The notes below the pieces were generated by a model. It was not told the origin of the DNA and did not search any database. It saw nothing but the letters and a program-made list of their open reading frames with translations. Shown piece after piece: positions 305 to 37,007 of a stretch of DNA of 64,000 bases. The translations under genes were made by a program, and so were the position numbers. Origin of the DNA: Methanobacteriota archaeon (GTDB taxonomy: Archaea; Thermoplasmatota; Thermoplasmata; Thermoplasmatales; Aciduliprofundaceae); contig JAADDK010000002.1 of NCBI GenBank assembly GCA_013154005.1, positions 1,729-65,728 on the forward strand, read 5' to 3'. Position 1 is the stretch's first letter; every line of letters begins with the position of its first letter.

Positions 305-430
305 CCATTGCATATTTTTGAGATATGAGGTGTTCCATTGGAAATGTGCATTTCCACTGGAAGCAACGGAAAGTATATATACGACTTGGGACATACATAA
401 GTCGGACAAAAAATAGGGAAGGGAGCAAAA

Positions 431-790
431 ATGTCAGATTCATCACGTATAACAATACGGCTTTCGCAGACGGCTATGGAGCAGATGCAAAAGCTTGTGG
501 AAAGTGGCGAATTTAAAAACATATCGGATGTTGTGCGTACCGCAATAGAGCGGTTTCTTAGTGAGAAATTCTCACCTCCTAATGTTGAGAGGGTATCTGT
601 GGATCTGCCTAAAAAAACAAAAGACCTTCTGGTGGAATTAGTTGAGAGTGGGGAGATTGAGGCTGTGGATATGAATGATGCCATTCGTCTTGCGGTGAAG
701 GAATATGTAAGAAGGTACATCTCTCAGGCGGCTGAAAATGAAATAAAGAAGGAAATCGAAAAAATAAAGGAGCAGGGGGGAGATATTTGA
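431..790 (+). CDS. Tandem ribbon-helix-helix (CopG/Arc/MetJ-type) DNA-binding protein; first unit is CdrS-like
   Basis: There are two RHH units: SRITIRLSQTAMEQMQKLVESGEFKNISDVVRTAIERFL and ERVSVDLPKKTKDLLVELVESGEIEAVDMNDAIRLAVKEYV. A TATA-like tatatata lies about 50 nt upstream. The stop TGA at 788-790 overlaps the ftsZ start TTG at 787. Confidence 0.75.
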   Translation: MSDSSRITIRLSQTAMEQMQKLVESGEFKNISDVVRTAIERFLSEKFSPPNVERVSVDLPKKTKDLLVELVESGEIEAVDMNDAIRLAVKEYVRRYISQAAENEIKKEIEKIKEQGGDI

Positions 791-1818
791 GCTTGTCTTA
801 CATACTTCGTCGTGTCTCTGAGTACACGGAGAGCGATATGCATTTTGATGTTCAGAATCCCAATATTGTGGTTGTGGGGGTGGGCGGCTCCGGGTGCAAC
901 ACGGTATCCAGAATGAAGCGATTGGGTCTGGAAGTACCCACCATAGCGGTTAACACCGATATGGTAAACTTACGCATGGTGGATGCGGACAAGAAAATTT
1001 ATTTGAAAACGCGTACTGGAAGAAGCACGGGGGGCCATGTGGAGGAGGGTGAAGCCAGTGCCCTGATGGCGAGAGACTACCTTGAGAGATCTCTGGAAGG
1101 TTCGGATATTGTGTTCATCACCACGGGTCTGGGAGGCGGTACGGGCACAGGAGCCACGCCAGTAATAGCGGATATTGCGAGAAAGCTGGGCGCACTGGTT
1201 ATTTCCATTGTCAGTTTGCCTTTTGAAATTGAGAATATGCACGTGAAGCGTGCCCGTGAGGGGCTAAAGAAAATCATGGAATATTCGAATACGGTGATTG
1301 TGCTTGAGAATGAGAAGCTTCTGGATATAGTGCCCAACAAGCCGCTCAACGAGGCGTTTATGGTGATGGACCAGCTCATAAGTTATACAATTATGTCGTT
1401 TGTGGATATGATTACCAAGCCTTCGCTCATCAATATAGACCTTGCGGACCTGAGATACATGCTTGAGAGGGGCAATCTATCCACGATTCTCATAAGTGAG
1501 GGCGAGATAGACGATGTGCGCCGCATAGTCACAGACGCGCTAAACAACCCGCTGATGAATATCGATTATTCCACCGCGAACGGCGCCCTTATTCACATCA
1601 CGGTGGGCGAGGACGCATCTCTCAATACAATATATTCCACCGTGGATACCATATCCTCGTTCATGCGGAGAGACCCAAAGATTACCATGGGTGCGCGGAT
1701 AGACCCTGAGTACGGAAACAGAATGAGAATTCTCGTTGTGCTCACAGGTATAAAAGTCCCGTTTATGGAAAAGGTAAGGGAGATACCCGAGCTGGAGGAG
1801 GACTTTGAGGTAAGGTAA
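787..1818 (+). CDS. ftsZ: Cell division GTPase FtsZ (divergent, short, 343 aa)
   Basis: Motifs seen: IVVVGVGGSGCNTVSRM; the tubulin signature GLGGGTGTGATPVIADIARKLGALVISIVSLPF; NTVIVLENEKLL; and an acidic C-terminal tail EIPELEEDFEVR. It is translationally coupled to the upstream RHH gene. Confidence 0.9.
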   Translation: MSLSYILRRVSEYTESDMHFDVQNPNIVVVGVGGSGCNTVSRMKRLGLEVPTIAVNTDMVNLRMVDADKKIYLKTRTGRSTGGHVEEGEASALMARDYLERSLEGSDIVFITTGLGGGTGTGATPVIADIARKLGALVISIVSLPFEIENMHVKRAREGLKKIMEYSNTVIVLENEKLLDIVPNKPLNEAFMVMDQLISYTIMSFVDMITKPSLINIDLADLRYMLERGNLSTILISEGEIDDVRRIVTDALNNPLMNIDYSTANGALIHITVGEDASLNTIYSTVDTISSFMRRDPKITMGARIDPEYGNRMRILVVLTGIKVPFMEKVREIPELEEDFEVR

Positions 1819-1864
1819 AGTATTAAATTGGAAATTTCCATTACAAGTAAGGGAGGTTTGAAGA

Positions 1865-4800
1865 TTGCCAACGCCATATTTAAGCCGGCTAAAACTCGAA
1901 AAAGAGCTTGAGAAAAAAGCGCAGATGCTTAGAGAGAAGAAGGAAAAGTGCGATGCTTTGATGAGTGATGTGGAAAAGTACATGCAGATTTTAGAGGGCC
2001 GAATCGCTATTGATGATTATAAAGAGCAATACAAAAAGGGCCGTGAACTGTACGATATGAAGGACATGGATGCGGCCATAGAGGTTATGAAATCACTGCA
2101 TAGCGAGCTTCTTTCCAAACTCAAAGAGGTTTATAAAGAAGATAAGGAAAAAATTGAGAAAGTAATGGAAATGCTGTCCGGTGAGGACCTTGCGAAAATC
2201 CGTGCAGACCTTCGTGAAGGTGAAGAATATCTTGAAACCTCCCCCGAAAAGAGTTTTGAGATTCTGGATTCGATATCAAGCCGGCTGAAGGTAATTGTGG
2301 AAGAGAATATTGGTCATATGAAGATGGAGCTCGAGGGCTCTTTAGGGTCTATAGAGGGATTTGACTGGGTTAAAAAAGAGGTGGCGGAGGTTGGCGACGA
2401 GCCCACCACCGAGGCTCTTTTGAAATTACGGGAGATTCGGGACAGAGCCGTTAAAAAGGTGGAAGAGAAAATAAACATGGCGGTGAAGCGTGTAAACACA
2501 ATTGTGGAAATAGCCCACTCCGCACATTTCAATCTACCAATCGATAAAAGCCTGGAAAATAAGATATCGGAGCTGATGAGTGAGGGCAACTACGCAGGGG
2601 CACTCAGGGTTGCCGATGAATATCTTGCCAGTGCGAAGAAGGCATTTGAGTTCTTTTATCGCAAACTCTACGATATTGCCCGGCGCATAGTTGAAGAGGG
2701 CAAGGCCATGGATATAGAGATTGACAGTATAATGAGAATGCTGGAGCAATCGCGTAAAAAGTACGAAGAGGACAATTTTGAAGAAGCGGTAGCACTGATT
2801 AAAAAATCCACTGAAGAAGCGGAAAAATTGAAGGTTCAGAAAGTCATGGATACCATGAAAAAAGCGAGAGACATTTTCCTTCAGGCGAAATCGCAGGGGA
2901 TAGATATTGAGCCGTTTCTAAAAAGGATGGATAATGCGCGAAATTTCCTTAAAATAGGGAAGCCGAAGAGAGCATACGATATAATTCTGGAAACTCTTGA
3001 CATGGTTGAACGGAAGAAGAATCTGTACGAGCAGCTCAAATCGGAGATAAAGAGAATCAAAGAAATTGTTGAGGACCTGCGCAAGGAGAATATAGTGCTG
3101 GAGGGCGTGGATGAGAGTATTGCCAAGATAGATGCAGAGATAGAAAAGAGTCCTGAGCGTGCGGAGAAGATGGTGAACGAGCTTCGCGCAGGTATAAAAT
3201 CAAGCCTTAGGGATATTGCGCAGACACTTTACGGGGATATAGAAAAGCTCATTGATCTTGGAGAAAAAGAGGGGCTGGTGCTCGAAGATATGCGCCTCGC
3301 ACTGCGAGATATCAAGGGCCAGATTACCGATGAGAGCTATCGTGATGCCATTCTGGAGTTGCGAAAGATAGAAGAAGAGCTTTACTCGCGTACAGAAGCG
3401 TATCTTGAGGACATAGAAAAGCGCACATCCAAGTTCGAGGATAAAGATATAAAAGCAAAAATCGAAGCGGTTAAGAAGGATCTGGAAAATGCTGAATTAG
3501 AGGCGGCGTTTGAGAAGCTTGGCGAGATTCGGGAAAGGATATTCGAGATAGAGAGCAAGGGCTATATCGAGAGAATCAAAAAGCTTCGCGATGAGGTTGA
3601 GTTTTTGCGTGGCGCGGGCGGGAATGTGACCGAGATACTCAGTTACGTTGAAAGGGCTGAGGTTGCACTTAAAAAGAAAGATATAGTGCGCGTGGAGGAT
3701 TATATTTCTCGCAGTGAAGAAACGCTCAAAAATGTTGAGTCGCTGGTGGCGAAAGAAACGTTTGATTCTGCTAAGGCAATAGCGGCTGCCGCAAAAAGAA
3801 TTGGAGTGAACATATCTGCACAGGGTATACTCGGACTGCTTAAGAAGGCAAAGGAGAGCATAGAAAAAGGAGAGTATCATCGCTCCATAGAGTATTCGCT
3901 GGAAGCGAAGAAGAAATCCAAAGAGCTGAGAGATAAGGCGGAGCATGCTTACTCACTGTTGGTCAATGCGGCAAAACGCGTATCACGCATAAAGGAGATG
4001 AACGGCAAGGTTGACGAGCTGGCCAAGTTGCTGGTTGAAGCGAAGAAGAGTCTGGAAGATAACGATTTTGAGCGTGTAGAAAAACTTTCAAATGAGTGCA
4101 TACAGAAGGCGGATAAGATTGAGAAAAAGACGAAGATTGAGCAGATGCGCAAGGAGATAGATTCAATAGGTAAGGTGATGAGTGAGCTTGGACTCGCGGA
4201 TATATACAAGCAGAAGAGCCGGGAGTTTTACAGAAAATACGAGGATATGAAATACGATGAGCTTCCGCCAATTGGAGAGAAGGTGCTAAGCGAGCTTCGA
4301 GAGTACGTGGAGACGATACTCACTGATTATATAGGCAAGATTGAAACGGATATTTACGATGCCAAGGGCAAGGGATACAATCTGGACATCAATATGCAGG
4401 ACTTGGAAAACGCCGCGGACCTGTTCATAAAGAGGAAGTACATGGAATCGCTTTATCTGCTTAAGAAGCTGGAGAACCAGATTGCGGCCATTTATGAACG
4501 AAATGAGCGCATGGAGGAGTTGAAGAGCGAAATCAAAAAGTACATGGATATGGCGGTGTCGCTGGGTATAGATACCACGGAGTACAAGCGCCGGCTCGCG
4601 GAGCTGGAGCAGGAGAAGGATCTCAAAGTGGCTCAGAAAAAGGCGAAGAAAATCATATCGGATATAGAGGGTGCGCTTTACAAGAAGGTGCGCGCGCTCA
4701 TGGTTAAGGTGGAGAAGGAGTTAGACGCCATGCGCCGTCGTGGAGAAGATATAACTGCGCCTGAGAATATATTGAATAAGGCGAAAGATAAACTTAAAGA

Positions 4801-6718
4801 TAAAAAATACGTGGAATCTCTGAATCTGGTTATGAATGCGGTGGGTGAGATAGAGAAATACGAGATACAGAAGAACACCGCATACGGCATATTGAAGCGG
4901 CTGGGAGATAAGATAAAAGTTATGCAGAACGTGCTACCCAAGAAGATAGTGGACGAGTACGAGTACTCCAAGAAGCTGTTTCTTAAAGGTCTGTACGAGC
5001 AGTCTATAGAGCGCTCGATGAAGGTAAGCGAGGAGATATCCGAGATTGAGCGCATACTCAATTACATAAAGGAGAAGAACAAGCAGATTCGCGAGATGGT
5101 TATGCGTGCGCATCATCTTGGCATGGATGTGCGCGATGTGATTCGCATATTCAACAAGGCGAAGGAGGAGTTCAAGAACATGCATTATCAGGAATCTCTC
5201 AAGCTTGTGGACCAGTGCTATGCAGAGGCAAAATTGCTGATGATAGATGCCATGAACAAGTACAAGGGTGCGTACAGCCGCATGCTGAGTATGATGAAGC
5301 GCATGCACATAGATGATTATTTCAAGGATGATATTAGACAGATGGAGGAGTTGTTTGACAAGGGCGATTATGATTCAATAAAGGTAAAGTTGAGCGAGAT
5401 GAACAAAGCGCTCAACCAGAAGTTAGGTGAGCTGAGCAACGAGATGCTGAAAGAGTTTGCGGAGAAGAAGGCTCTGTTCAAGAGCATGCACGTGGATGCG
5501 GGCATAGATTTTGATAAAGAGGAGATGAAGCTTCGCGAATACCGAGCAAAAGATTTCAACAAGTTCTTTGAATATTACGCGTCACTTAACGAAAAGATAG
5601 AGTCGTACATGCCCAAGATTATCCGGAAGAAGGTGGAGGAGCTCAAATCTGAGTTTGATAAGTATGAGAGATACGGAGCGAACACCGAAGAATATCATTC
5701 CCGTCTTTACGAGATAATCTCCGAGATGGAAGAAAAAGATTACAACGAGATTTTCAAAATGCTAAGAGAGGTGGAAAACAAGTTCCGTGTTTACATAGAC
5801 GAGTATGTTAAGACTTTAATAGAGCGGGTTAAGAAGCGCGTGTCTGAGTTCAGCGAGGCGAAGGCTAACGAATACGTTGAGCGCATGGAAAAGCTTCGCA
5901 GTGTTGGTAACTACATCGATGCGATACGGGTTTACGAAGAGGCGAGCAATTTCGTGGGCAGATACAAAGTGTTCCGTGAAGATTTCGGGAAGAAGGTGGA
6001 AGAAGTTAAAGACCGGCTCCGGTTTGCTCTTTCGCTGGGATTGAAGGTTGGAGACCTTATCACCAAGCTGAAAGAAATAGAAGAGCATGCACCGGAGGAT
6101 ATGGAGCGTGCAAATCTGGAGCTGAAGGACCTCAAATCAGAGGTAAATAAGATGATAGACGCACTGGAGCCGCGCATTGAAGTGGATATCGAGCTTGGTG
6201 AGGAGTCGGGTGGGGTGATAAAAGCCACGCTGGGTGTGAAGAACACCGGTGACGTGGAGGCTCAGAACGTGCAGATACATATACGGGGAGCGCTCATCGC
6301 GGACAAGCCCATAGAGGTGCTCAAAGTGGATAAGGGGGCCAGAGAGGAAGTTGAAGCGACCCTGCGGATTGGAAAGGGCAATAAAGTTAGCATTGTGGCG
6401 CATTACAATCGGTTTGATGGTAAGGAGTACACGTATTCTCAGGAGTTCGAGGTGTCCGTGGAGAAGCCGAAGGAGGAGACCAAAGAGCCGAAAAAAGAGA
6501 AGCACGAGGAAAAAGAGAAGAGCAAGGAAGAAAGCAAGGGCTATCACATAGAGAAAGCCAAGGAGAAGGTTAAGTGTTCGTTCTGCCGTGGCACGATACT
6601 GCCCGCGATGAACCTCGATGTGGTAATCTGCGATAACTGCGGTGCAGTGTACCACGTGCCATGCGCGAAGAGGATAAAGAAGTGCAAGGTTTGCGGACAG
6701 GAGTTCAAGTTTGATTGA
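1865..6718 (+). CDS. Giant (1617 aa) helical-repeat protein with a C-terminal beta-sandwich (CARDB-like) domain and a C4HC3 zinc finger; function unknown
   Basis: TTG start is preceded by GGAGGT 7 nt upstream. It is a single long Lys/Glu-rich ORF with recurrent modules such as K-x2-G-[IV]-D ... G-x-[YF]-x2-[AS]. A beta-rich segment reads IEVDIELGEESGGVIKATLGVKNTGDVEAQNVQIHIRG.... The C-terminus is CSFC-x14-CDNC-x4-H-x2-C-x6-CKVC. No signal peptide or TM helix is evident. Confidence 0.85.
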   Translation: MPTPYLSRLKLEKELEKKAQMLREKKEKCDALMSDVEKYMQILEGRIAIDDYKEQYKKGRELYDMKDMDAAIEVMKSLHSELLSKLKEVYKEDKEKIEKVMEMLSGEDLAKIRADLREGEEYLETSPEKSFEILDSISSRLKVIVEENIGHMKMELEGSLGSIEGFDWVKKEVAEVGDEPTTEALLKLREIRDRAVKKVEEKINMAVKRVNTIVEIAHSAHFNLPIDKSLENKISELMSEGNYAGALRVADEYLASAKKAFEFFYRKLYDIARRIVEEGKAMDIEIDSIMRMLEQSRKKYEEDNFEEAVALIKKSTEEAEKLKVQKVMDTMKKARDIFLQAKSQGIDIEPFLKRMDNARNFLKIGKPKRAYDIILETLDMVERKKNLYEQLKSEIKRIKEIVEDLRKENIVLEGVDESIAKIDAEIEKSPERAEKMVNELRAGIKSSLRDIAQTLYGDIEKLIDLGEKEGLVLEDMRLALRDIKGQITDESYRDAILELRKIEEELYSRTEAYLEDIEKRTSKFEDKDIKAKIEAVKKDLENAELEAAFEKLGEIRERIFEIESKGYIERIKKLRDEVEFLRGAGGNVTEILSYVERAEVALKKKDIVRVEDYISRSEETLKNVESLVAKETFDSAKAIAAAAKRIGVNISAQGILGLLKKAKESIEKGEYHRSIEYSLEAKKKSKELRDKAEHAYSLLVNAAKRVSRIKEMNGKVDELAKLLVEAKKSLEDNDFERVEKLSNECIQKADKIEKKTKIEQMRKEIDSIGKVMSELGLADIYKQKSREFYRKYEDMKYDELPPIGEKVLSELREYVETILTDYIGKIETDIYDAKGKGYNLDINMQDLENAADLFIKRKYMESLYLLKKLENQIAAIYERNERMEELKSEIKKYMDMAVSLGIDTTEYKRRLAELEQEKDLKVAQKKAKKIISDIEGALYKKVRALMVKVEKELDAMRRRGEDITAPENILNKAKDKLKDKKYVESLNLVMNAVGEIEKYEIQKNTAYGILKRLGDKIKVMQNVLPKKIVDEYEYSKKLFLKGLYEQSIERSMKVSEEISEIERILNYIKEKNKQIREMVMRAHHLGMDVRDVIRIFNKAKEEFKNMHYQESLKLVDQCYAEAKLLMIDAMNKYKGAYSRMLSMMKRMHIDDYFKDDIRQMEELFDKGDYDSIKVKLSEMNKALNQKLGELSNEMLKEFAEKKALFKSMHVDAGIDFDKEEMKLREYRAKDFNKFFEYYASLNEKIESYMPKIIRKKVEELKSEFDKYERYGANTEEYHSRLYEIISEMEEKDYNEIFKMLREVENKFRVYIDEYVKTLIERVKKRVSEFSEAKANEYVERMEKLRSVGNYIDAIRVYEEASNFVGRYKVFREDFGKKVEEVKDRLRFALSLGLKVGDLITKLKEIEEHAPEDMERANLELKDLKSEVNKMIDALEPRIEVDIELGEESGGVIKATLGVKNTGDVEAQNVQIHIRGALIADKPIEVLKVDKGAREEVEATLRIGKGNKVSIVAHYNRFDGKEYTYSQEFEVSVEKPKEETKEPKKEKHEEKEKSKEESKGYHIEKAKEKVKCSFCRGTILPAMNLDVVICDNCGAVYHVPCAKRIKKCKVCGQEFKFD

Positions 6719-8192
6719 TATGCTCACAAAGAGATTTGGATTTGCCAAGGCCACGACGGGCGAGTTTGAGACGCCTATACTGTTAGATTGCGATGCGTTG
6801 CGCGAATCTGGCGAGATTCTGGGCCGTAGGGTGGAGCGGGGTGTGCATTATCCGCCGAGCATTTATCAGCGGGAGATTAAGATTGATGAGAACTTTTATC
6901 TCGTTCCCAACGCCAACGACCTGCTTCGCAATGCCAGGGATTTTGTGGATTACACGGTGAAAATAAGAAAAAAATACGGATTTGGAGCGATATTCTACCT
7001 TCCCGGAGCGCCCGCGCATCTCTATCCCGTGCTTTTCTATATGGGCTATGACGTGTTCGATGACTGCCATTCCCGCCTTGCAGGCGCCGCGCCGTGGGGG
7101 TCTTCCACTAATGATTACGGGAAGCAAATATTCGATATGACAGTCGATGCGTTTAACGAGGGCATGCTTCGGGAGTTCGTCGAGGGCATGCCAGACAATA
7201 AGAGTCAGGAGCTGCTTCGATATCTTGACCTTCACTACTGGAAAGAGCAGGAGCAGTTTTATCCCGCGCATAAAGAACGATTGAACGCAGTGAGCATGAA
7301 CTCTCTGTTTCGCCCGGATATACAGAGATGGTTTGAGCGATTGAAGGAAAGATACAAAAAACCCGATTACGCAAAGCATCTGCTTCTCATACCCTGCTCT
7401 GCCCGCAAGCCGTACTCTGAGTCGAAATCACATCGGTTGATGGCCCGATACATCAAATCCACCATGCATGAGGTCATACTCACCTCACCCCTGGGTCTCG
7501 TGCCCAGAGAGCTGGAATCTTTCTATCCCGCGAAGAATTACGATATACCCGTCATCGGGCACTGGTACGAGGAGGAGAAGAAATTAATACACGATATGCT
7601 GAGCTGGTACCTTGCCACGTTTGAGTATGACTCCGTGGTGGCGTATCTGCCCGAGAGCATGCGTTTTCTCCGCGAATTGCTCGAAAAGTACGATGCCGTG
7701 ATGCTCTGGGGCCATGACCTTGACTCTCTATCTACCGAGACCCGAAAACTTGGGTATCGGGTAAAACGCAGCGAGGTGCTGAGGCAGAATATGCAATCGC
7801 TCTCTCGCTTTCAGTTCGCGCACGAGTTCGATTTTGAGAACGTGCGTGTGGTGGGGCGTTATCCACGGGTGGATTTGAAGATGGACGGTGAAAGATTGTT
7901 TGGATACGACCTGCACCGGGGCATGCTCACACTGGCAGAAAGGTCGGCCCGTGAGCTCGCAGAGGCAGAAAAATACACTGTGGAAATTGACGATTTCTGG
8001 CCAGAAGGTGATGTTTTTGCGGCAGGAATACTTGAGGCCACTGCCGAAATTCGGGAAAGCGATGAGGTAGCGGTGGTTCATGATGGCGAATTGCGTGGCT
8101 GGGGCATTGCGAAAATGAGCGCTTACGATATGGTTAACGAATCTCGTGGCAAATCGGTGAAGATAAGATCATATCCGCATAAAAGGGCTTAA
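6711..8192 (+). CDS. arcS: Archaeosine synthase ArcS-like protein (truncated TGT-like N-terminus, DUF5591-type core, C-terminal PUA domain)
   Basis: Contains the LLIPCSARKPYSESKSH motif typical of the ArcS/DUF5591 core. The C-terminal PUA-like segment is DVFAAGILEATAEIRESDEVAVVHDGELRGWGIAKMSAYDM. Start is either TTG 6711 or ATG 6720, and it overlaps or abuts the stop of the giant gene. Confidence 0.65.
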   Translation: MIDMLTKRFGFAKATTGEFETPILLDCDALRESGEILGRRVERGVHYPPSIYQREIKIDENFYLVPNANDLLRNARDFVDYTVKIRKKYGFGAIFYLPGAPAHLYPVLFYMGYDVFDDCHSRLAGAAPWGSSTNDYGKQIFDMTVDAFNEGMLREFVEGMPDNKSQELLRYLDLHYWKEQEQFYPAHKERLNAVSMNSLFRPDIQRWFERLKERYKKPDYAKHLLLIPCSARKPYSESKSHRLMARYIKSTMHEVILTSPLGLVPRELESFYPAKNYDIPVIGHWYEEEKKLIHDMLSWYLATFEYDSVVAYLPESMRFLRELLEKYDAVMLWGHDLDSLSTETRKLGYRVKRSEVLRQNMQSLSRFQFAHEFDFENVRVVGRYPRVDLKMDGERLFGYDLHRGMLTLAERSARELAEAEKYTVEIDDFWPEGDVFAAGILEATAEIRESDEVAVVHDGELRGWGIAKMSAYDMVNESRGKSVKIRSYPHKRA

Positions 8193-15581: not shown

Positions 15582-16586
15582 ATGAAACTCACCGAGTTGA
15601 AGTGCCCGACCTGCGGGGCTAAACTTGTACCAGAGTCAGTTAATGCTAAAATAATAATGTGCAGTTATTGCGGCACGGTAGTTTATCTGGAAGAGGAGCG
15701 CAAGGTGGTTTATGTAGATGGGGTGTCGCAGAAAGAGCGTGGTGAGACTGAGCTGGCTTTGATTTCTCTGCATTCTGCAAATTATCAAGATGCAAAGGTA
15801 AAGTTCGAGCAGGCGATATCCAACAATGTGGGCAACAACGTCGCATGGTTCGGCAAGGCGGCGGCAGACGTGCATCTGGGGAGACTGGGCGAATCTCAAC
15901 TGGCTTTTAAAAAGGCAATCTCCCTCGGCTCACCCGCGGAGATGGTGATAAGCTGGGGCAATTATCTGATGGATACTGCTCGATACTATCAATACTCCAT
16001 GTATTCGCGGGCAAACGCATATCGAGGCAATCCGGCAGCATCTCCCAATGAAATAAACAGACTTTACCAATTATCACAGGAATATGGCAAATATCGAGAT
16101 GTGATTAATGGAGAGATGTATGCGTATCTATTATCAACGGCCAAAAGCAACACGATTGACGAAAACATACTTGGGTACGTGCTTCAACTGAGCTTGAACC
16201 AGAAAGATTATGCAAATGCCTACGCTCTGGCGGATAAGCTGCTGAGTCGAGAGCCTGCCAGTAAAGTTGGTCTCTATTATAAGGGTGTTGCGGCACTCTA
16301 CCTTGGCCAACCGGAGGTGAGCATATCTTCGCTGACGCCACTGCTGGAATCTTTGCCCAACAACTACAACGTTTACATATACCTTGCTTACGCATATTAC
16401 CGTGCCGGCAATAGAGATTATGCGCTGGACCTGCTTCTTACCGCATGCGGACGGTATGGAAACCGTGCGGTGTTCGATGCCCTATCCTCTCTTTACAAGG
16501 AGTGGTATAAAGACGATAAACGTGGTGCAAAATCATGGAAATCCTCGCGGAAAAAAGATATTAAAAGATATCGTGTGCAGCTGTGA
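15582..16586 (+). CDS. Zinc-ribbon plus TPR-repeat protein, function unknown
   Basis: N-terminal zinc ribbon is CPTCGAKL-x14-CSYCGTVV. TPR-like helical repeats follow (NYQDAKVKFEQAISNN, KDYANAYALADKLLSREP). Confidence 0.6.
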   Translation: MKLTELKCPTCGAKLVPESVNAKIIMCSYCGTVVYLEEERKVVYVDGVSQKERGETELALISLHSANYQDAKVKFEQAISNNVGNNVAWFGKAAADVHLGRLGESQLAFKKAISLGSPAEMVISWGNYLMDTARYYQYSMYSRANAYRGNPAASPNEINRLYQLSQEYGKYRDVINGEMYAYLLSTAKSNTIDENILGYVLQLSLNQKDYANAYALADKLLSREPASKVGLYYKGVAALYLGQPEVSISSLTPLLESLPNNYNVYIYLAYAYYRAGNRDYALDLLLTACGRYGNRAVFDALSSLYKEWYKDDKRGAKSWKSSRKKDIKRYRVQL

Positions 16587-17721: not shown

Positions 17722-18450
17722 GTGGACGAGATAAGCAGAGACGGGCTCACGCTTACCAAGTACGGTATGCTATTCATTGAAGATTACGAAACGGCAGTTA
17801 TAGCGGACCTGCATATTGGCTATGAAGACGTAATGTCCAGCAAAGGTATATTTCTGCCTCGAATACAGAAACGCTTTCTCATTGAGCGCCTTGAAGTGAT
17901 CATTGATAAATATCAGCCACGGCAACTCATCATCAACGGCGATTTCAAGCACGAATTTTCGCGTAATATGAGACAGGAATGGGACGAGATTGAGGAGGTG
18001 CTGGATTTTTTAAGTACTCGGGTGGACGTGGTGGTTGTGCGGGGCAACCATGACAATTTTCTAAAAACGATTCTTGGAAGAAGAGGGCTCACACTTTACG
18101 ATAAATACACAATTGGCAGGTACACCATGGTGCACGGGCACAGAGAGCACGAGGTGCGCCCCATCACCATAATCGGGCACGAGCACCCAAGCATAAGTTT
18201 AAGAGATGAGCTTTCTGCCACTGTGAAAGTGCCGTGCTTTCTTTATTCACCCGACCTGATTGTCCTGCCCGCCATGAGCATCTACGCATCCGGCACGGAC
18301 ATCACGAAAAACGAATTCATATCTCCGATTTTGCAGAAAAATAAAAGAGATTTTGAAATATACGGGATAGATGAGCATATGGGCGTGCTGCCCATGGGCC
18401 GGCTCAGTTCTCTCCCAGCACCTTCTGAAGATTATCCACCACTTCGTTGA
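17722..18450 (+). CDS. Calcineurin-like metallophosphoesterase (SbcD/MJ0037-like)
   Basis: Metallophosphoesterase motifs are present: DLHIGYE, INGDFKH, VRGNHDN, VHGH and GHEHP. Confidence 0.75.
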
Positions 18451-19246
18451 ACGCTTTTGCAGCCTCGCTGTCCTTGTATTCCAGCACGAAGGGTGTGCCA
18501 GAGTCGCCGCATTTCACAATATTCGCGTCCATGGGTATGCTCCCCAGAAACGGCACGTTGTACTTTTCTGCCGCTTTCTTTCCTCCTCCGGTGCCGAATA
18601 TCTCGCCGGCCATGTTCTCTATTATACCCACAACTTTCTTGTTCATCTGTCTTGCAAAGTTAATGGCCTTTGTGGCGTCCAGCACCGCAACTTCCTGGGG
18701 GGTGAGCACTATGAGCACGCCGTCCATATCAGGAATGAGCTGTGATACGCTCAGCGACTCATCGCCGGTGCCGGGAGGCATGTCAATGATGAGATAATCC
18801 AGCTCGCCCCAGTCCACTTCGTCCAGGAGCTGTTGTATTGCCTTGTGTTTCAGAGGCCCGCGCCATACCACGGGGAGGTCGTCCTGGGGCAGGGCCATCT
18901 GGATGGATATGACTTTTAAATTTGGTATTGGTTCCACAGGGACTATGAGCTTTTTATCGTTTACTTCCAGTTTTGCGTTCTGCACGCCCAGCATCTTGGG
19001 CACGTTGGGGCCGTGTATGTCCGCATCCAGCAGACCGACCTTGAACCCGCGCAGTGCGAGGGTTGCTGCCAGATTTACGGCCACGGTGGTTTTACCCACC
19101 CCGCCCTTACCGCTGAGTACCATGAGCTTGTGTTTTATTTTTTTCATTTTCTCCGCAATCCGTTTTTCGGTCTCTTTTGCCTGTTTAATTCTATCGGCCA
19201 TCGCTTTTGCCTGAACCGGATCAACTTGTACTCCCATATTCATCAC
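18404..19246 (-). CDS. Mrp/NBP35/ApbC-family Fe-S cluster carrier ATPase
   Basis: Motifs seen: deviant Walker [35 protein letters not shown] and [11 protein letters not shown]. Confidence 0.9.
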
Positions 19247-19708: not shown

Positions 19709-21841
19709 ATGCTTTTCCCAGCCAAGATGGCTGAAGTCGAGGTCCTTGTTCACAACTCGGTGAAATATCAGGTTCTTAAGGTTATGCAGCGGAATGCGTT
19801 TATCCATCTCACTCAGCATAATCTTCCTGTGGAGAATGCAAAGCCCTCTCCAGATGTCAACGTTCTGGTCGATTATAGCTTCAGACTTTCAAAGTTGATG
19901 TCCGTGCTGGATATCGCAAAAGTGAAAAAGGAAGGTATCAAGGAAATACTAAATCCCACAGCTCCCGAGCGTTTTCCAGTTAAAGATATGAATAGGGAGG
20001 AGGTACTTCAAGAGACTAAGAAACTTCTCGATGAGCTCGAGGAGGAAATACAGAGTATTGGTGAGGAGTGGGAGAAAATAGCCGAGGTTGAAGATAAACT
20101 GGAAACGAGACTCAGATATGCCCGTATGCTGTTGGGACTCGATTTTGATGTTTCATATCTCGGCACGGGTAAATATGCAATTATTACTGCAGGTACAGTA
20201 AAGGAGCTCGAACCGCTTTATAAGATTAAATCGCAAAATAAACTTGCGTTCTGGCATCGAGTAGAAGGCAAAAAAAATCCACTGTATATTGTGGTGGTGG
20301 CGTATTTAATCGAGGATAGAAAGGAGGTTGAATCAGCACTTAGATTTGCAAATTTCTCAGAGTTCGATTTAAGTGGGTTCAGGGGTAAGCCTGTGGAGGT
20401 CATAAAAGATATTGAGAACAGACTGGCAGCTGCTCAGAAAGAGCGCAAGAAACTTTTGTCGCAAATTGGGGAACTCAGAAAAAAGCATTATGGAAGAATT
20501 GCTGGTCTCTGGGATAACATCGAAAATGAAAAAATTAAAGAAGAAGCTCACAACAAAATGGGTTCAACAAAATACACAACTGTCATAAGAGGATATATTC
20601 AGAAAAAGCGTTTGGATGAGGCAATAGCCAAAATAAATGAAGTGTCAAAAGGACTTGCTTATATATCATGGAAAGACGCAGAGGGAGATAAGGTTCCAAC
20701 TGCGTTTAACAATCCCATTTTTCTCAGGCCTTTCCAGGCGTTTGTGGAGATGTATTCTATTCCGAAGTACGGGTATATAGAACCCACTGTGATAATTGCA
20801 CCTTTATTTGTTGCATATTTCGGGTTGACTCTGGGCGATGCTGGCTACGGTTTTATAATGGCAGTTTTGGGATATCTGCTTTGGTTTCATATTGGAAGAT
20901 ACAACTGGACAAACCGGACACTGGGTAAAATTCTGTTTGCCTCGGGGATCTCCGCGATAGTGTTTGGTCTGATACAGGGTAGCATATTTGGCCCGTTAAA
21001 CTCTTACAATCCTCTTTATCCATGGATTCATTATAAGCCAATTCTGGATGCCATGAACGACCCGGTCACGCTGCTGGTCATAGCGTTGATAGTCGGTATA
21101 GCACAGATTTCGCTGGGGCTTATACTGGGTGCGTATCATCATCTCAAGCACAAAAACTATGGTGATTTTCTCACTTCAGAGCTTTCGTGGTTTTTAATTT
21201 TGCCTGCGGGCGGGGCACTCATCGGCTACTATTTTGGGTGGTGGACCGTGCCCGTGATGATACAGAACATTTCATGGGTTATGCTGCTCATAGGATTTGC
21301 GCTTCTTTCGGGTGTGCCCGGGCATATGGTTAATAAAAAATCGGAAATCAACGCCATGGCGTTCTTTGACGTCACCGGGATGATTGGAGACTGGCTCTCG
21401 TATTCTCGACTTCTTGCACTTGATCTGGCCACATCCGGTCTGGCGCTTACAATAAATCTCTTTGCTGATATCATTCGGGGAATGGTTGTGGGCGCAGGGA
21501 GTATGGTATGTTGCATGCCACTTTTAATTATTGGCTTTGCGTTGTTTGCGTTCGTGGCGCGCACCAGAGATAAGATGAAAATAGGCATTGCGGCAGTTCT
21601 TCTTCTGTTCGGTGCAGTGGGTATGGTAAGTTTATCTGCGGCGCTGTGGCTGTTTATCGGGGTATTCCTGATTGCGGGGCACATTGGCAACGCGATTCTG
21701 CAATCGCTGGGCTCTTTTGTGCATTCTTTGAGGTTACAGTACGTGGAATTCTTCTCAAAATTCTATGAGGGAGAAGGTGTGAAGTTTGAACCGTTTAGAG
21801 AAATTAGGAAGCACTCGCGTGTTGGAGGTGTGAAAAAATGA
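19709..21841 (+). CDS. atpI: A-type ATP synthase subunit I (stator a-subunit)
   Basis: A soluble coiled-coil N-terminal half of about 340 aa is followed by a multi-TM C-terminal half with the conserved SYSRLLALDLATSGLA motif. Confidence 0.9.
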   Translation: MLFPAKMAEVEVLVHNSVKYQVLKVMQRNAFIHLTQHNLPVENAKPSPDVNVLVDYSFRLSKLMSVLDIAKVKKEGIKEILNPTAPERFPVKDMNREEVLQETKKLLDELEEEIQSIGEEWEKIAEVEDKLETRLRYARMLLGLDFDVSYLGTGKYAIITAGTVKELEPLYKIKSQNKLAFWHRVEGKKNPLYIVVVAYLIEDRKEVESALRFANFSEFDLSGFRGKPVEVIKDIENRLAAAQKERKKLLSQIGELRKKHYGRIAGLWDNIENEKIKEEAHNKMGSTKYTTVIRGYIQKKRLDEAIAKINEVSKGLAYISWKDAEGDKVPTAFNNPIFLRPFQAFVEMYSIPKYGYIEPTVIIAPLFVAYFGLTLGDAGYGFIMAVLGYLLWFHIGRYNWTNRTLGKILFASGISAIVFGLIQGSIFGPLNSYNPLYPWIHYKPILDAMNDPVTLLVIALIVGIAQISLGLILGAYHHLKHKNYGDFLTSELSWFLILPAGGALIGYYFGWWTVPVMIQNISWVMLLIGFALLSGVPGHMVNKKSEINAMAFFDVTGMIGDWLSYSRLLALDLATSGLALTINLFADIIRGMVVGAGSMVCCMPLLIIGFALFAFVARTRDKMKIGIAAVLLLFGAVGMVSLSAALWLFIGVFLIAGHIGNAILQSLGSFVHSLRLQYVEFFSKFYEGEGVKFEPFREIRKHSRVGGVKK

Positions 21842-23172
21842 AAAAATTGATGCTGGCTTTGCTGCTCATGCTTTTGCTGAGCGGAGTGGCGTACGGTGGA
21901 GAGGTTAATGTGACGCATTACACGTGGTATAAAACGGATACAAAAGAGACCACGTCTGTGGAATCCACCACCTTTGTGGTTGGTGATACGTATGTGTTTG
22001 AGTACAGTGATAACGGTAAGGTTTTGGATAATGTGAGCTGGGTTATCACAAACATGAATGATGGAACTGAGCATGTGTATGTGGGCAATCCGGTAAGGGT
22101 GCAGTTCCAGGAGGCCGCGTATTATAACATCACTGTTAAAGAGGGTAACAATGTGGTTTATACCCACAAGATAAAAGTCCACGATGGGCCTCTGGGTGCG
22201 TATCTTGCGCTAATCGGTGCGGGTATTGCGGTGGGTGCATCGGGTATGGGAGCGGCAATCGGTGTGGGTATTGCTGGGGCCAGCGGTACTGCTGCAATCG
22301 CTGAAGATCCTAAAAGATTTAGAAACGCGCTCATATTTCAGGCATTTCCGCAGACACAGGCTATTTACGGGCTGCTTGTGGGTATAATGATTCTGATGTA
22401 CACGCATGCGTTCGCGTCTACACTGCATGTAAACATCGACGTGCCGGTGGGCGCCGGACTTATCGCGCTTGGTGCAGGATTGTCAGTGGGTATTGCGGGG
22501 CTCAGCGCCATAGGTCAGGGTATTGTGGCTGGTACAGGTATAGGTGTGACCCGAAAAGAGGGTACGTTCGGTAAGGCTGTGGTGTTCACAGTGCTGCCAG
22601 AAACCCAGGCAATTTACGGTTTGCTTATTGCAATTCTTCTGCTTCAGGGACTAACCTGGATGATGAACAAGTCGCTATCACCATCGTATATGCTTGGCAT
22701 GGGTATCGCTGCGGTGGGTGTCGGTCTCGGCATGGGACTTAGCGGTATCACGGCCATAGGTCAGGGCATTGCTGCCGCAGGTGGTTCTGCTGCCACCACA
22801 CAGAATCCAAAGGCTTTCTCCTCATCAATTATATTTGCGGTGCTTCCAGAAACCCAGTCCATATACGCGCTTCTGGCGGGTATACTTGTAATTACGTCTA
22901 TGAACCTGATGGGTGGGGTGCCTCACTTTGCGCCGTATCAGACGGTGTTAATAGGTCTCGGGGTTCTGGGCATAGGTTTCTCGGTAGGTCTGGCAGGCAT
23001 AAGCGGTATCGGACAGGGTATAACCGCCGGAGCCGGTGCAGCGGCGTATGTGAAGAATCCAGGTACCAGAAGCCGAGCAATTATACTGTCTGTGATGAGC
23101 GAAACTTTTGCCATATTCGGATTGTTGATGGCGATACTGATTATGATGTCTCTGGGCATATTTGGAGGATGA
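21838..23172 (+). CDS. atpK: A-type ATP synthase proteolipid subunit K: four fused hairpins preceded by a signal peptide and a beta-rich ectodomain of about 95 aa
   Basis: The ATGA overlap with the atpI stop is at 21838-21841. N-terminus is MKKLMLALLLMLLLSGVAYG. The four hairpins end in AFPQTQAIYG (Gln), VLPETQAIYG, VLPETQSIYA and VMSETFAIFG. Confidence 0.85.
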   Translation: MKKLMLALLLMLLLSGVAYGGEVNVTHYTWYKTDTKETTSVESTTFVVGDTYVFEYSDNGKVLDNVSWVITNMNDGTEHVYVGNPVRVQFQEAAYYNITVKEGNNVVYTHKIKVHDGPLGAYLALIGAGIAVGASGMGAAIGVGIAGASGTAAIAEDPKRFRNALIFQAFPQTQAIYGLLVGIMILMYTHAFASTLHVNIDVPVGAGLIALGAGLSVGIAGLSAIGQGIVAGTGIGVTRKEGTFGKAVVFTVLPETQAIYGLLIAILLLQGLTWMMNKSLSPSYMLGMGIAAVGVGLGMGLSGITAIGQGIAAAGGSAATTQNPKAFSSSIIFAVLPETQSIYALLAGILVITSMNLMGGVPHFAPYQTVLIGLGVLGIGFSVGLAGISGIGQGITAGAGAAAYVKNPGTRSRAIILSVMSETFAIFGLLMAILIMMSLGIFGG

Positions 23173-24848: not shown

Positions 24849-25165
24849 AGATGGCAGTGCTTGGCGACGAGGAATTCGTGCTGGGGTTCAAATTGGCGGG
24901 TGTGAAGGTGGCCCGCACGTGTGAGAATGCAGAGGAGACGCGCCGCGCACTGGAAGAGTTTCGAGGTATGAACGATATTGCAGTGCTATTGATTCAGCGC
25001 AAATACGCGCGAATGGTTGGAGAGTATTTGCATGAGTGGAAATCCAAGAAAGATATTTATCCGGTTATTGTCGAGCTTCCCGGGTATGGAGAGCGGGAAG
25101 AGGTTGAAGACCCGATGCGTGAAGTTATCAGAAGAGCGATAGGTATAGACATTATGAAGAGGTGA
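24845..25165 (+). CDS. atpF: A-type ATP synthase subunit F
   Basis: It is about 100 aa, with [18 protein letters not shown] and the operon position between C and A. Confidence 0.85.
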
Positions 25166-26919
25166 AAGATATGGGAAAGATAATAAGGGTTGCAGGACCC
25201 GTGGTGATTGCGGACGGTATGCGTGGCAGTGAGATGTACGAAGTGGTTCGTGTGGGCGAAGAGGGTCTCATAGGTGAGATTATAGCCCTTGCAGGAGATA
25301 GAGCCACGATTCAGGTTTATGAAGAGACCTCTGGTATAAAACCGGGTGAGAAGGTGGTACGCACCAACGCGCCTCTTTCTGTAATTCTTGGTCCCGGTAT
25401 TATTGGCCAGATTTACGATGGTATCCAGCGTCCCTTGCCAAAGATTAAGGAAAACATGGGCGATTTCATCCAGCGCGGAGCCAACGTTGCTCCGCTGGAT
25501 TTTGATAAAAAATGGCATTTTGTACCCAAAGTTAAGGTTGGTACGGAGGTGCAGGGCGGCGACGTTCTGGGTGTGGTAAATGAGACAAACCTTGTGGAGC
25601 ACCGAGTGATGGTGCCCCCCGATATTTCGGGTACAGTGGAGTTTATAGTCGATGAGGGGGATTATACCATTGAAGAAGTAATAGCCAGAATTGGCGGTAA
25701 AGATGTTAAGATGTACCAGCGCTGGCCTGTGAGAAAACAGAGACCCTTTAACAGAAAGCTGGATCCCACGGAATTGCTCGTTACTGGACAGCGTGTCCTT
25801 GATACGTTTTTCCCAATTGCAAAGGGTGGTGCAGCGGCCATTCCCGGCGGGTTCGGAACGGGAAAGACCGTGACGCAGCACCAGCTTGCAAAGTGGAGCG
25901 ATGCCGAAGTCATAGTTTATGTGGGCTGCGGTGAGCGTGGAAACGAGATGACCGAGGTGCTTGAAGATTTTCCAAAACTTAAGGATCCGAAAACGGGCGA
26001 GCCGCTTATGAACCGAACGATTCTTATAGCCAATACCTCGAATATGCCGGTGGCTGCAAGGGAGGCCAGTATTTATACGGGTATTACAATCGCTGAATAC
26101 TTCCGGGATATGGGATACAATGTGGCACTTATGGCAGATTCCACATCTCGCTGGGCCGAAGCGTTACGAGAAATTTCCGGACGTCTGGAAGAGATGCCCG
26201 GTGAGGAGGGTTATCCAGCATATCTCGCATCACGCCTCGCGGAATTCTACGAACGTGCGGGTTACGTGAATGTTCTGGGTACTGATGAGAGAAAGGGATC
26301 GGTCACAGTGGTGGGCGCAGTTTCTCCGCCGGGTGGGGACTTCTCGGAGCCGGTAACACAGAATACTTTGCGTATCGTTAAGGTGTTCTGGGCTCTGGAT
26401 GCAGAGCTTGCGCATAAACGACATTTTCCCTCAATCAACTGGCTTCGCTCGTATTCGCTGTACCTTAACACGATTCGGGGCTGGTGGGAACGAAATGTTG
26501 CAAAGGATTGGTACGATATGCGAAGAGAAGCCATGGGTATTCTGCAGAGAGAGGCTGAGTTACAGGAGATTGTGCAGCTTGTGGGTCCCGATGCACTGCC
26601 GGCTAAGGAGCAGGCCCTTCTCGAGACTGCCAGGTCCATCAGAGAGGATTTTCTGCAGCAAAACGCGTTTCATGACGTTGATACGTACTGCCCCGCGGAG
26701 AAACAGTACGATATGCTGCGCATAATATTAAAGTTCCATGCTCTTGCAACACAGGCGGTGGAACGGGGTGTGCCTGTGGACAAAATCCGCAGATTATCCG
26801 TTAAGGAAGATATAGCGTACATGGGTCGTATACCCAACGACACATACAAAGAGGAGTTTAAGAAAATTGAGGATAAGCTTGAGGCGGAGATTGCCAAGCT
26901 CATAGCCGAGGTGAGCTAA
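25162..26919 (+). CDS. atpA: A-type ATP synthase catalytic subunit A
   Basis: Contains [14 protein letters not shown], Walker [11 protein letters not shown] and the [27 protein letters not shown] motif. An alternative ATG is at 25171. Confidence 0.97.
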
Positions 26920-28326
26920 ATGGAAGTTGAATATAAAACTATAAGGGAGGTAAAAGGTCCGTTGCTAATTGTGGAAAACACCCGGGATGTGGCCTATGGA
27001 GAGGTTGTGAAGATTCGAGGCCCAGATGGTAAGGAGCGTCTGGGACAGGTGCTGGAGGCAAGAGAGAATATGGCGGTTGTGCAGGTTTTTGAAGGTACAC
27101 GCGGGCTTGATGTGAAAAACACCTCTGTGAAATTTCTGGGAGATACGCTCAAAATTGGTGTATCCCTTGAAATGTTGGGTCGTGTGTTCGATGGCACCGG
27201 GCGCCCAATAGACGGTGGTCCAGATATAATACCTGAGGAGATGCGAGATATAAACGGAAATCCGATAAATCCTGCGGCGAGGGAGTATCCCCGTGAGTTT
27301 ATTCAGACGGGCATATCCACCATCGATGGTATGAACACCCTGGTGCGCGGTCAGAAACTTCCTATATTCAGTGGTGCGGGTCTGCCGCACAACGATATTG
27401 CCGCGCAGATTGCGAGGCAGGCAAAGGTGCGTGGTGAGGGTGAAAAATTCGCCGTGGTTTTCGTGGCTATGGGCATTACCGCTGAGGAAGCCAACTTTTT
27501 CCGCAAAGAGTTCGAGAGAACCGGGGCCCTTGAACGCACTGTGCTGTTCCTGAATCTGGCAAATGATCCTGCTATTGAGAGGATTGTGATTCCGAGAATG
27601 GGACTCACGGTGGCCGAGTATCTGGCGTTCGAGAAAGATATGCATGTTCTCGTCATTCTGACAGATATGACGAATTACTGCGAAGCACTGCGCGAAATAT
27701 CCGCCGCACGAGAAGAGGTGCCCGGACGCCGTGGATATCCGGGTTATATGTACACGGACCTCGCTATGCTTTACGAGCGCGCGGGAAGAATAAGAGAGAA
27801 GAACGGAAGCATAACCCAGATCCCGATTCTGACCATGCCCGACGACGATATGACACACCCGATTCCAGACCTCACGGGGTATATCACGGAGGGTCAGATA
27901 GTGCTTAGCAGAGAACTGCATCGCCGCGGCATCTATCCTCCGATTAATCCGCTGCCTTCTCTGTCCAGACTTATGAAAGAGGGTATTGGTGAGGGGCGTA
28001 CTCGGGAAGACCACTCTGGTGTGGCGAATCAGCTTTACGCTGCCTATGCAGAGGGATTGCGTCTCCGTGATCTCGTGGCGGTGGTTGGTGAAGAGGCTTT
28101 GACAGAAGAGGACAGAATCTTGCTCAAATTTGCAGATGCTTTTGAGGATAAGTTCATCACTCAGGGCAGCGATGACGACCGCAGCATAGAAGAAACCCTG
28201 ACCATTGCCTGGGAACTGCTTGCAATGCTTCCTCGCAGTTACCTGAAAAAGATAGATAAGAAGTATATAGAGACGTATCTGCCAATGACGCCAGATGTAC
28301 CAGTACTGCCTGAAGACGAGATTTAA
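26920..28326 (+). CDS. atpB: A-type ATP synthase subunit B
   Basis: Motifs seen: [35 protein letters not shown] and [35 protein letters not shown]. Confidence 0.97.
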
Positions 28327-36657: not shown

Positions 36658-37007
36658 ATTGAAATGAACGATTCCGGGTTGCTGGTGAACTCCGTGGCGT
36701 AGGCGTTGACTTCGTATAGCTCTCTTGGAATTTCCTTTCCCGCAAGATATGCTATGAAAAGCAGAGAGGTGAGATGCGCCCTGCCGGGCAGCTGCCATGT
36801 GCCCTTGCCGGAGGCGGTGATGCCCTGCGCGATATCTGTTAATTTTTCTCGCACATTTTTTGAGAGCCAGCCTATTTTCTCGTAGTACGTCAGCAATTTT
36901 GCCAGCTCTTCGTGGTCCATGTATTGCAGCAGATATCCGAGCCACCGATGCACCATGGCGTACGCTTCCACACTATCCGGCAGGGTTTCGAGCAGCATTT
37001 TCACCAC
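36654..37007 (-). CDS. Archaellum accessory protein, ArlD/E (FlaD/E) C-terminal-domain family
   Basis: HRWLGYLLQYMDHEELAKLLTYYEKIGWLSKNVREKL matches the FlaD/E 'YY..IGWIS..V' core. It overlaps the archaellin gene end by 7 nt. Confidence 0.6.
   Translation of the reverse strand: MVKMLLETLPDSVEAYAMVHRWLGYLLQYMDHEELAKLLTYYEKIGWLSKNVREKLTDIAQGITASGKGTWQLPGRAHLTSLLFIAYLAGKEIPRELYEVNAYATEFTSNPESFISI

Follow-up and report, generated by a model that had tools for sequence, protein, structure and literature searches.

A giant helical-repeat protein encoded between ftsZ2 and an arcS-like gene in DHVE2 archaea

To our knowledge, the known archaeal partners of FtsZ are a handful (SepF, CdpA, CdpB1-3 and CdpC), and nearly all of them are haloarchaeal. 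Here we analyse a locus in a 64,000-nt stretch (called the window throughout) of contig JAADDK010000002.1, assembly GCA_013154005.1, which belongs to a genome of the DHVE2 group (Aciduliprofundales, Thermoplasmatota). At this locus the genes for a CdrS-like ribbon-helix-helix (RHH) regulator, an FtsZ2-type tubulin homologue, an uncharacterised protein of 1617 aa, here referred to as the giant protein, and an ArcS-like tRNA-modification protein follow each other on one strand (Table 1). The giant protein stands for a family and a fold that are both real and new. As for the locus as a whole, we tentatively favour a reading in which it is built of two units and the giant protein serves as a cell-cycle scaffold; we hold this reading as possible rather than probable.

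The synteny of cdrS and ftsZ2 in haloarchaea and other Euryarchaeota has been published (PMC7439475, PMC8406309), and archaeal ftsZ genes are generally situated among informational genes (PMC9871819). Our locus resembles the CdrS-FtsZ2 system in that a small RHH gene lies directly 5' of, and is coupled to, the gene for an FtsZ2-type paralogue. Unlike CdrS, which has ~60 aa, the RHH protein of the window has 119 aa and consists of two halves, that is, of a single-chain pseudo-dimer. Neither a giant gene nor an arcS gene downstream is mentioned in the published descriptions of cdrS-ftsZ2 (PMC7439475, PMC8406309). If the link to FtsZ is real, the nearest functional analogue of the giant protein would be EzrA of the Firmicutes, likewise an elongated array of helical-bundle repeats (PMC4243239). 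However, EzrA has five triple-helix repeats of ~100 residues and an N-terminal membrane anchor, whereas the giant protein has 23 two-helix repeats of ~60 residues, no membrane segment and a head made up of an immunoglobulin (Ig)-like domain and a RING finger. At most it would work in the manner of EzrA or of another divisome scaffold built from helical repeats. A further comparison is with CdpC, a zinc-ribbon protein that anchors FtsZ1 to the membrane in Haloferax and of which remote relatives have been reported in Thermoplasmatota (bioRxiv 10.64898/2026.07.16.738847). Both are fast-evolving archaeal zinc-finger proteins proposed to act on FtsZ. In CdpC a variable unstructured linker joins two zinc ribbons, and the N-terminal domain contains an amphipathic membrane helix. 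The giant protein, by contrast, combines an ordered repeat array with a cross-brace finger of the RING type, and no amphipathic anchor was identified in it. A relationship of the giant protein to CdpC was ruled out by this architecture.

Table 1. Features of the RHH-ftsZ2-giant-arcS locus, in positions of the window
Feature	Position	Strand	Evidence and remarks
Candidate BRE/TATA GGAAAG-TATATATA-C	368..382	+	Sequence reading; ~50-60 nt 5' of RHH start
CdrS-like RHH regulator, 119 aa	431..790	+	Pfam RHH_1, NCBIfam CdrS
FtsZ, FtsZ2-type paralogue, 343 aa	787..1818	+	Pfam Tubulin and FtsZ_C; stop at 1816-1818
BRE/TATA-like element AAAG-TATTAAAT, candidate giant-arcS promoter	1817..1828	+	Conserved across DHVE2; 43 nt before giant start
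Shine-Dalgarno GGAGGT	1852..1857	+	7 nt before TTG start; kept in 9/10 loci
Giant protein, 1617 aa, uncharacterised family	1865..6718	+	Open reading frame and homologue searches
Conserved N-terminal peptide and first long helix, residues 1-45 (MPTPYLSRLKLEKELEKKA...)	1865..1999	+	Alignment, AlphaFold2
23 tandem ~60-aa repeats, residues 50-1435	2012..6169	+	AlphaFold2, repeat dissection
Ig-like eight-strand beta-sandwich, residues 1438-1529, CARDB / adaptin-appendage-like	6176..6451	+	AlphaFold2, Foldseek
Disordered Lys/Glu-rich linker, residues 1533-1557	6461..6535	+	AlphaFold2 pLDDT <50
C4HC3 binuclear zinc finger, Prok-RING_1, residues 1560-1617	6542..6715	+	PF14446
ArcS-like archaeosine synthase alpha	6711..8192 (or from 6720)	+	Pfam DUF5591 and PUA; TTG 6711 or ATG 6720

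The regulator-ftsZ2 pair and the junctions of the giant gene

Two RHH halves stand in tandem in the regulator (residues 6-46 and 56-93), which matches Pfam RHH_1 at 32.4 bits (cut-off 20.5) and is 65-71% identical across DHVE2. Its top NCBIfam match is CdrS (NF058555; 40.5 bits, E 2e-10), which covers residues 6-46 alone and stays under the cut-off of 100 bits; in the NCBIfam search the second half resembles the RHH of ORF56. The protein has the fold of CdrS and the place directly 5' of ftsZ2, but not the equivalog score of NF058555. The regulator and ftsZ genes overlap by 4 nt, with the RHH stop TGA at 788-790 and the ftsZ start TTG at 787, just as read in an initial annotation that had been made from the sequence alone. 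Relatives carry the same junction as ATGA, which validates the ftsZ start at 787.

The FtsZ protein matches PF00091 (118.7 bits) and PF12327 (65.9 bits), both above their thresholds, and scores 294.5 bits against TIGR00065, marginally under the cut-off of 295.2; its translation contains the motifs GGGTGTG and NIDLAD, and FtsZ1 of M. jannaschii is its top match in the PDB (243 bits). Orthologues of this FtsZ group together at 56% identity or more, beyond which identity drops sharply to 49% or less. A paralogue with 45% identity in the complete genome of Aciduliprofundum sp. MAR08-339 adjoins L7Ae-S28e-L24e-NDK-TruD. Such a ribosomal context is typical of ftsZ1, whereas ftsZ2 typically has an RHH_1 gene in its neighbourhood (PMC9871819). 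Since the paralogue stands in a ribosomal context whereas the ftsZ of the window has an RHH_1 neighbour, we class the latter as an FtsZ2-type paralogue, a typing by identity group and gene context and not by a phylogenetic tree. The RHH-ftsZ pair is the known archaeal CdrS/FtsZ2 division module with a variant, tandem RHH. This agrees with the initial annotation, which had pointed to the pairing of a small CdrS-like RHH regulator with ftsZ2. In 9 of 11 FtsZ2 orthologues the C-terminus carries a semi-conserved peptide, [FY]-x-[VI]-[RK], which was lost in L012 and L013. The peptide may serve as a tail on which a partner docks; in archaea, SepF is known to use the tail of FtsZ2.

Between ftsZ (stop 1816-1818) and the giant gene (TTG 1865) lie 46 nt, and the gap, the GGAGGT and the TTG start were all found as originally described. 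Across the DHVE2 loci two parts of this spacer are kept, the GGAGGT and an element resembling a B recognition element (BRE) with a TATA box; the remainder drifts. In 9 of 10 loci the element keeps its register and reads GGTAAA(n)ATTAAAT or AAAAATTTAAAT, and even clades whose giant proteins are just 35-37% identical still have it. The exception is L012, with a spacer of 12 nt and an A/T-rich stretch within the end of ftsZ. The stretch from the TATA-like element to the Shine-Dalgarno sequence also includes a perfect palindrome of 10 nt, GGAAATTTCC (1831-1840); the palindrome is partial in L005 and L010 and absent elsewhere. Because it is not conserved in the relatives it was not treated as a feature.

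The initial annotation had argued that the spacer left no room for an internal promoter. This claim has to be given up in view of the conserved element at -43. Furthermore, a comparison of the regions 5' of all large open reading frames (ORFs) in the window showed that co-directional genes with gaps of 25-45 nt regularly have TATA-like elements at -30 to -43, for example those with starts at 8233, 13287, 31595 (AAAGTTTAAATA at -40), 47878 and others. Since TATA-like elements in this genome typically lie near start codons, the spacer can hold a promoter. With promoter-like elements located 30-45 nt before starts, tight spacing is here a poor argument for co-transcription. In the other lineages the giant gene is always preceded by an intergenic region of 85-270 nt. 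Together with the conserved element this argues, as far as sequence can tell, against the single three-gene operon that had been proposed. No oligo-T terminator was seen in the ftsZ-giant spacer, while a T6 run does follow the arcS-like gene. Because no terminator separates the two pairs, transcription started at the RHH promoter can run through and contribute to the expression of the giant gene.

At its 3' end the giant gene meets the arcS-like gene, which contains DUF5591 and PUA domains and scores below the cut-offs of the ArcS models (NF053620, 380.8 bits against 600; NF040592, 332.4 bits against 440). Its start may be TTG 6711 or, with greater likelihood, ATG 6720, which lies 2 nt past the giant stop and is as available as the former. 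An ATG within 5 nt after the giant stop recurs in relatives and is the sole start option in L021. The overlap of the giant stop by the next gene, as annotated initially, thus stands if TTG 6711 is used and falls if the equally available ATG 6720 is used; with either start a promoter would not fit into the junction. A gene for an H+-pyrophosphatase follows downstream of the arcS-like gene. Two units, RHH-ftsZ2 and giant-arcS, with read-through possible, are most likely the most economical reading of these sequences. The locus would then consist of two tightly built pairs arranged head to tail: in one the CdrS-like regulator would be translationally coupled to FtsZ2, in the other the giant protein to the ArcS-like gene, and the second pair would have its own BRE/TATA-like promoter and a strong ribosome-binding site.

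A family of giant helical-repeat proteins

The N-terminus of the giant protein (MPTPYLS...) is nearly invariant among 27 homologues (P4, Y5, S7, K10, E14, L15), and therefore 1865 is its true start. The motif L..L.K.LE.KA in this region is retained even by members with 20% identity. Structures were predicted with AlphaFold2 from alignments of 54 sequences in two overlapping pieces, residues 1-1100 and 1001-1617, with predicted local distance difference test scores (pLDDT) of 83.0 and 87.6, respectively. Residues 1-7 are disordered in the prediction and a helix spans residues 8-43. From residue 8 to residue 1432, helices of ~15 and ~40 residues alternate unbroken. They form repeats (n = 23) with a mean length of 60.3 aa (sd 5.5) and the consensus ..LeeAkelLeekdYeeA.e.l.E......G(I)D(I). 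The initial description, a helical-repeat and zinc-finger protein of 1617 aa, was borne out by AlphaFold2 and Pfam, with the finger at the C-terminus.

A profile built from the repeats aligns with consensus-TPR proteins at 22 positions (10-31; E 3e-18 as the sum of 8 units), which makes the first hairpin of the repeat TPR-like. It shares the signature ...L..A...L...gdY..A......A with TPR and TPR-like (MIT-type) scaffolds, and faint TPR_2 or ANAPC3 matches to Pfam occur in some relatives. However, the period is 60 residues against 34 in TPR, and the second helix has ~40 residues. Membership in the TPR family was rejected on the period of 60.3, on the lack of any Pfam TPR model at E<=0.01 and on the lack of TPR structures among the Foldseek matches. 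The same holds for the spectrin/EzrA class, for which there was no PF00435 or PF06160 match, no PDB sequence match and no Foldseek match at E<0.1. Of the models for spectrin, EzrA, MIT and DivIVA none matched; isolated matches of single repeats at E>0.004 were taken as noise. Sequence-profile searches against solved structures yielded just compositional matches of the apolipoprotein type (E>=3e-4), and Foldseek found no structural relative of the helical array in the PDB (top E 0.16). The fold of the family is predicted with confidence and has no relative among solved structures. With linear stacking of the repeats, each advancing by about half a long helix, the protein would perhaps form a rod of ~70 nm.

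The strands of the beta-sandwich that follows the repeats are predicted with a pLDDT of ~90. Foldseek finds weak matches to TRAP-beta and to the appendage ears of AP2 and GGA (E 4e-4 to 1e-2), and weak CARDB matches (PF07705) occur in relatives of the giant protein. According to Makarova et al., the fold class of TRAP-beta and adaptin ears, the same class as these top matches, occurs in archaeal ESCRT loci. A link to ESCRT was dismissed, as there is no Vps4 or ESCRT-III gene near any giant locus.

Within the giant protein, Pfam finds Prok-RING_1 alone, in the last 52 residues (PF14446, 34.4 bits, cut-off 29.1). All eight zinc ligands are present (C1571, C1574, C1589, C1592, H1597, C1600, C1607 and C1610), in the spacing C-x2-C-x14-C-x2-C-x4-H-x2-C-x6-C-x2-C, and they are invariant wherever the domain is present. 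By score and by its complete ligand set the C-terminus belongs to Prok-RING_1. Members of this family are reported to be sporadic and to be linked with genes of the ubiquitin system or with membrane helices. In the giant protein, by contrast, the finger caps a repeat protein of ~1500 residues without ubiquitin-system neighbours. No signal peptide, membrane segment, RNA-binding domain or enzyme domain is apparent from the sequence and from Pfam and NCBIfam, and the protein is cytoplasmic in appearance. A function in anti-phage defence was also considered; PADLOC returned no match for either the giant protein or the RHH regulator.

A word-indexed search retrieved 28 close clusters of 1498-1637 aa, and a profile of distant members added 52 further clusters. 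When the C-terminal third of the giant protein was run as a profile in an exhaustive search against 1.84 billion representatives, 370 were found at E<=1e-30 and 1112 at E<=1e-10. The typical length is conserved, with most members at 1430-1640 residues; some reach 2400, and others, from other Thermoplasmatota MAGs, are larger still, with 7,686, 7,274, 5,000, 3,904 and ~3,100 residues (P0201, P0202, P0239, P0212 and P0203). These outsized members contain the same module of ~60 residues, in up to 33 matched stretches, and all are annotated as hypothetical. The named members are throughout hypothetical proteins of Thermoplasmatota metagenome-assembled genomes (MAGs), except in one cluster, where two short, incomplete sequences bear the label Planctomycetota bacterium, probably through mis-binning. 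In a scan of species-representative genomes the close homologues were located in MAGs of the "DHVE2 group" and of Aciduliprofundum. One member, P0040 of the SMC-linked clade described below, has ~1435 residues and stops after the beta-sandwich, with the repeats kept and the RING missing; it is the one member of this length that was inspected, and it indicates that some lineages, at least, can do without the RING finger. P0037, P0039, P0041 and P0043 likewise have ~1435 residues. In L022 (4169-9041) the giant homologue is broken into ORFs of 1320 and 328 aa, by a frameshift, as a pseudogene or through an assembly error. No description of the family was found in the searchable literature, in line with the first annotation, which had not recognised the protein.

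Gene neighbourhoods and possible roles of the giant protein

The order RHH-ftsZ2-giant-arcS is found in every DHVE2 locus with enough DNA (L001/12, L005-7, L009, L013, L016, L021, L049 and L050; partial in L010 and L015). According to a clustering of flanking ORFs, this block of four genes is invariant against at least five upstream and at least three downstream contexts. Identities across DHVE2 are 35% for the giant protein, 57-61% for FtsZ, 66% for RHH and 55% for ArcS, so the giant protein evolves much faster. All members of the giant family and of the FtsZ2 group at 56% identity or more are located on contigs of 282 kb or less, while the FtsZ1 of MAR08-339 was recovered from its complete, 1.44-Mb genome. 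It may be that cultured Aciduliprofundum has neither ftsZ2 nor the giant gene, which would amount to a joint loss.

Outside DHVE2 the picture is different. Among ~35 loci sampled from other lineages of Thermoplasmatota, ftsZ never adjoins the giant gene. The neighbourhood comparison that had been suggested initially thus gave a divided answer: a giant homologue does lie 3' of RHH-ftsZ in all adequate DHVE2 loci, with varying flanks, but elsewhere the family is not found by ftsZ. An arcS gene follows the giant gene directly in L003, L022, L051-53, L055, L057, L060, L061 and L063, representing at least five lineages, with an overlap of 4 nt in L003 and L022. Upstream of the giant gene, SMC-ScpA-ScpB is found in L027, L029, L032 and L038 (disrupted in L028), with a gap of ~86 nt and a lyase gene downstream; Cgi121 in L004, L033, L037, L039 and L040; aIF5A in L034, L035 and L055; and no recurrent neighbour in L030 and L031. 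The distances from Cgi121 and aIF5A amount to 100-270 nt or more. In L023, which belongs to a lineage without ftsZ adjacency, an RHH_8/RHH_1 gene (4700-5005, minus strand) is convergent to the giant gene; tblastn did not recover it as an orthologue of the RHH gene of the window.

These neighbourhoods make a cell-cycle scaffold role of the giant protein plausible. Its two non-translational neighbourhoods, which were acquired independently, are ftsZ2 in DHVE2 and SMC-ScpA-ScpB in another clade of Thermoplasmata, and the DHVE2 block has resisted rearrangement. The giant protein might be a long protein-protein scaffold or tether, whose partners would be held by both ends and by two conserved repeat zones at residues ~300-455 and ~940-1120, and its role would most likely be tied to cell-cycle organisation. 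In DHVE2, co-expression with FtsZ2 by read-through might bring it to the division ring or its vicinity. Going further, one may think of a new class of cytoskeletal or cell-cycle scaffolds specific for Thermoplasmatota, with fixed-length rods of ~70 nm, enlarged to more than 7,000 residues in some lineages, and an Ig-like plus RING head that would bridge the FtsZ2 ring and the SMC-ScpAB chromosome; we consider this extension unlikely. If true, it would be an archaeal counterpart of the bacterial Ter-linkage or EzrA-type systems, made from unrelated parts.

Several points weigh against a cell-cycle scaffold. Judged by gene order, arcS is the deepest, tightest and most widespread partner of the giant gene, while the link to ftsZ2 is limited to one order and is not met again in the other lineages. 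The links to arcS, Cgi121 and aIF5A carry no cell-cycle logic. The SMC-linked loci also have the downstream lyase gene in common and may, for this reason, be one clade with a generally conserved gene order. The link to FtsZ2 and SMC is drawn from gene neighbourhood, and the promoter is predicted from sequence. The predicted template modelling score of the giant protein is low (0.33-0.46), as expected for an elongated chain, and the rod geometry is an estimate. Finally, the position of the giant gene may reflect no more than a setting of informational housekeeping genes, in which archaeal ftsZ genes lie as well (PMC9871819). This last thought leads to an adjacency without shared function, in which the giant protein would be a general housekeeping scaffold, such as a membrane skeleton, a nucleoid organiser or a complex hub, and in which an ancestral giant-arcS pair landed by ftsZ2 and was held there by compact spacing. 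The many lineages with giant-arcS and without ftsZ are in favour of it, as are the upstream neighbours that vary by lineage, the giant gene's own conserved promoter-like element and the informational setting of archaeal ftsZ genes in general. On the other hand, the block outlived all the rearrangements on both sides while the giant proteins diverged to just 35% identity, and the second, independent neighbourhood is also a chromosome or cell-cycle operon. On balance we find such a chance adjacency rather unlikely, though it deserves to be taken seriously.

The other explanations appear weaker. A single RHH-ftsZ-giant operon with a dedicated FtsZ-associated scaffold, tether or spacer, acting for instance on the FtsZ C-terminal tail, was the initial proposal. 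It would fit the invariant adjacency in DHVE2, the spacer without a terminator-like T-run, the semi-conserved C-terminal peptide of FtsZ2 and the bacterial precedent of EzrA, a helical-bundle-repeat regulator of FtsZ (PMC4243239). We doubt it strongly, however, as the spacer holds a conserved BRE/TATA-like element at the distance usual for this genome, ftsZ does not adjoin the giant gene in the ~35 loci sampled from other lineages, L012 and L013 lost the tail motif yet keep the giant gene, and the tail of archaeal FtsZ2 is known to be used by SepF. The proposed functional tie between the giant protein and FtsZ is weakened accordingly by the missing adjacency outside DHVE2 and by arcS as the tighter partner. 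That the giant protein instead organises or tethers factors of translation and tRNA modification is suggested by the arcS start, which overlaps or abuts the giant stop in DHVE2, L003 and L022, by the giant-arcS order in at least five further lineages and by the recurrence of aIF5A and of Cgi121, a KEOPS (t6A) component, upstream. Yet no RNA-binding or enzyme domain was detected in the giant protein, and gaps of 100-270 nt or more make the links to Cgi121 and aIF5A weak. Moreover, we know of no precedent in tRNA modification for a conserved repeat array of ~1500 residues, and we regard such a role as improbable. Most improbable of all seems an E3-like enzyme, with the RING as the functional core and the repeats recruiting substrates for a ubiquitin-like modification of the SAMP/Urm1 type. 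In its favour are the Prok-RING_1 match, which exceeds the cut-off of the family, and C4HC3 ligands that do not vary wherever the domain occurs. Yet the neighbourhoods examined contained no gene for E1, E2, Ubl or JAB, and P0040 dispenses with the RING while retaining the repeats and the beta-sandwich. Among these alternatives the scaffold tied to the cell cycle, encoded in a two-unit locus, is the reading we prefer, and the division link of the giant protein is an attractive hypothesis.

Other genes of the window and significance of the family

A few other genes of the window should be mentioned. An A/V-type ATPase proteolipid of 444 aa (21838-23172, plus strand) has four PF00137 matches, indicating a fused multi-hairpin c/K subunit; it is located within an ATP-synthase cluster together with subunit I (19709-21841), A (25162-26919) and B (26920-28326). 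On the minus strand, an 840-aa ORF (45378-47900) with a sub-threshold match of the coiled-coil type (RNase_Y_N, 26.5 bits) is overlapped by a 320-aa ORF (47878-48840) without any Pfam match; the two form another uncharacterised pair that includes a large protein. Two tandem P-loop proteins of the CbiA/ParA type with inserted 4Fe-4S ferredoxin motifs (58719-60464, plus strand) and, separately, a ParA-family ATPase of the Mrp/NBP35 type (18404-19246, minus strand) are both not beside ftsZ. A TPR protein of 334 aa (15582-16586, plus strand) is encoded downstream of an S4 gene and of a gene for an Rpb3/RpoA-like (RNA_pol_L) RNA-polymerase subunit. An archaellin gene lies at 37001-37870 (minus strand), and the tRNA genes at 41973, 52228, 54388 and 57486 (Glu, Gly, Phe and Ser) are all on the minus strand.

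The significance of the giant protein depends on what it acts with. Should it work together with FtsZ2 or SMC, archaea beyond the haloarchaea would have their first large structural component of a divisome or segregation apparatus, and one with a new helical-repeat architecture. If it has no such role, the search still defines a large and uniformly unannotated family, some members of which are among the longest predicted archaeal proteins.

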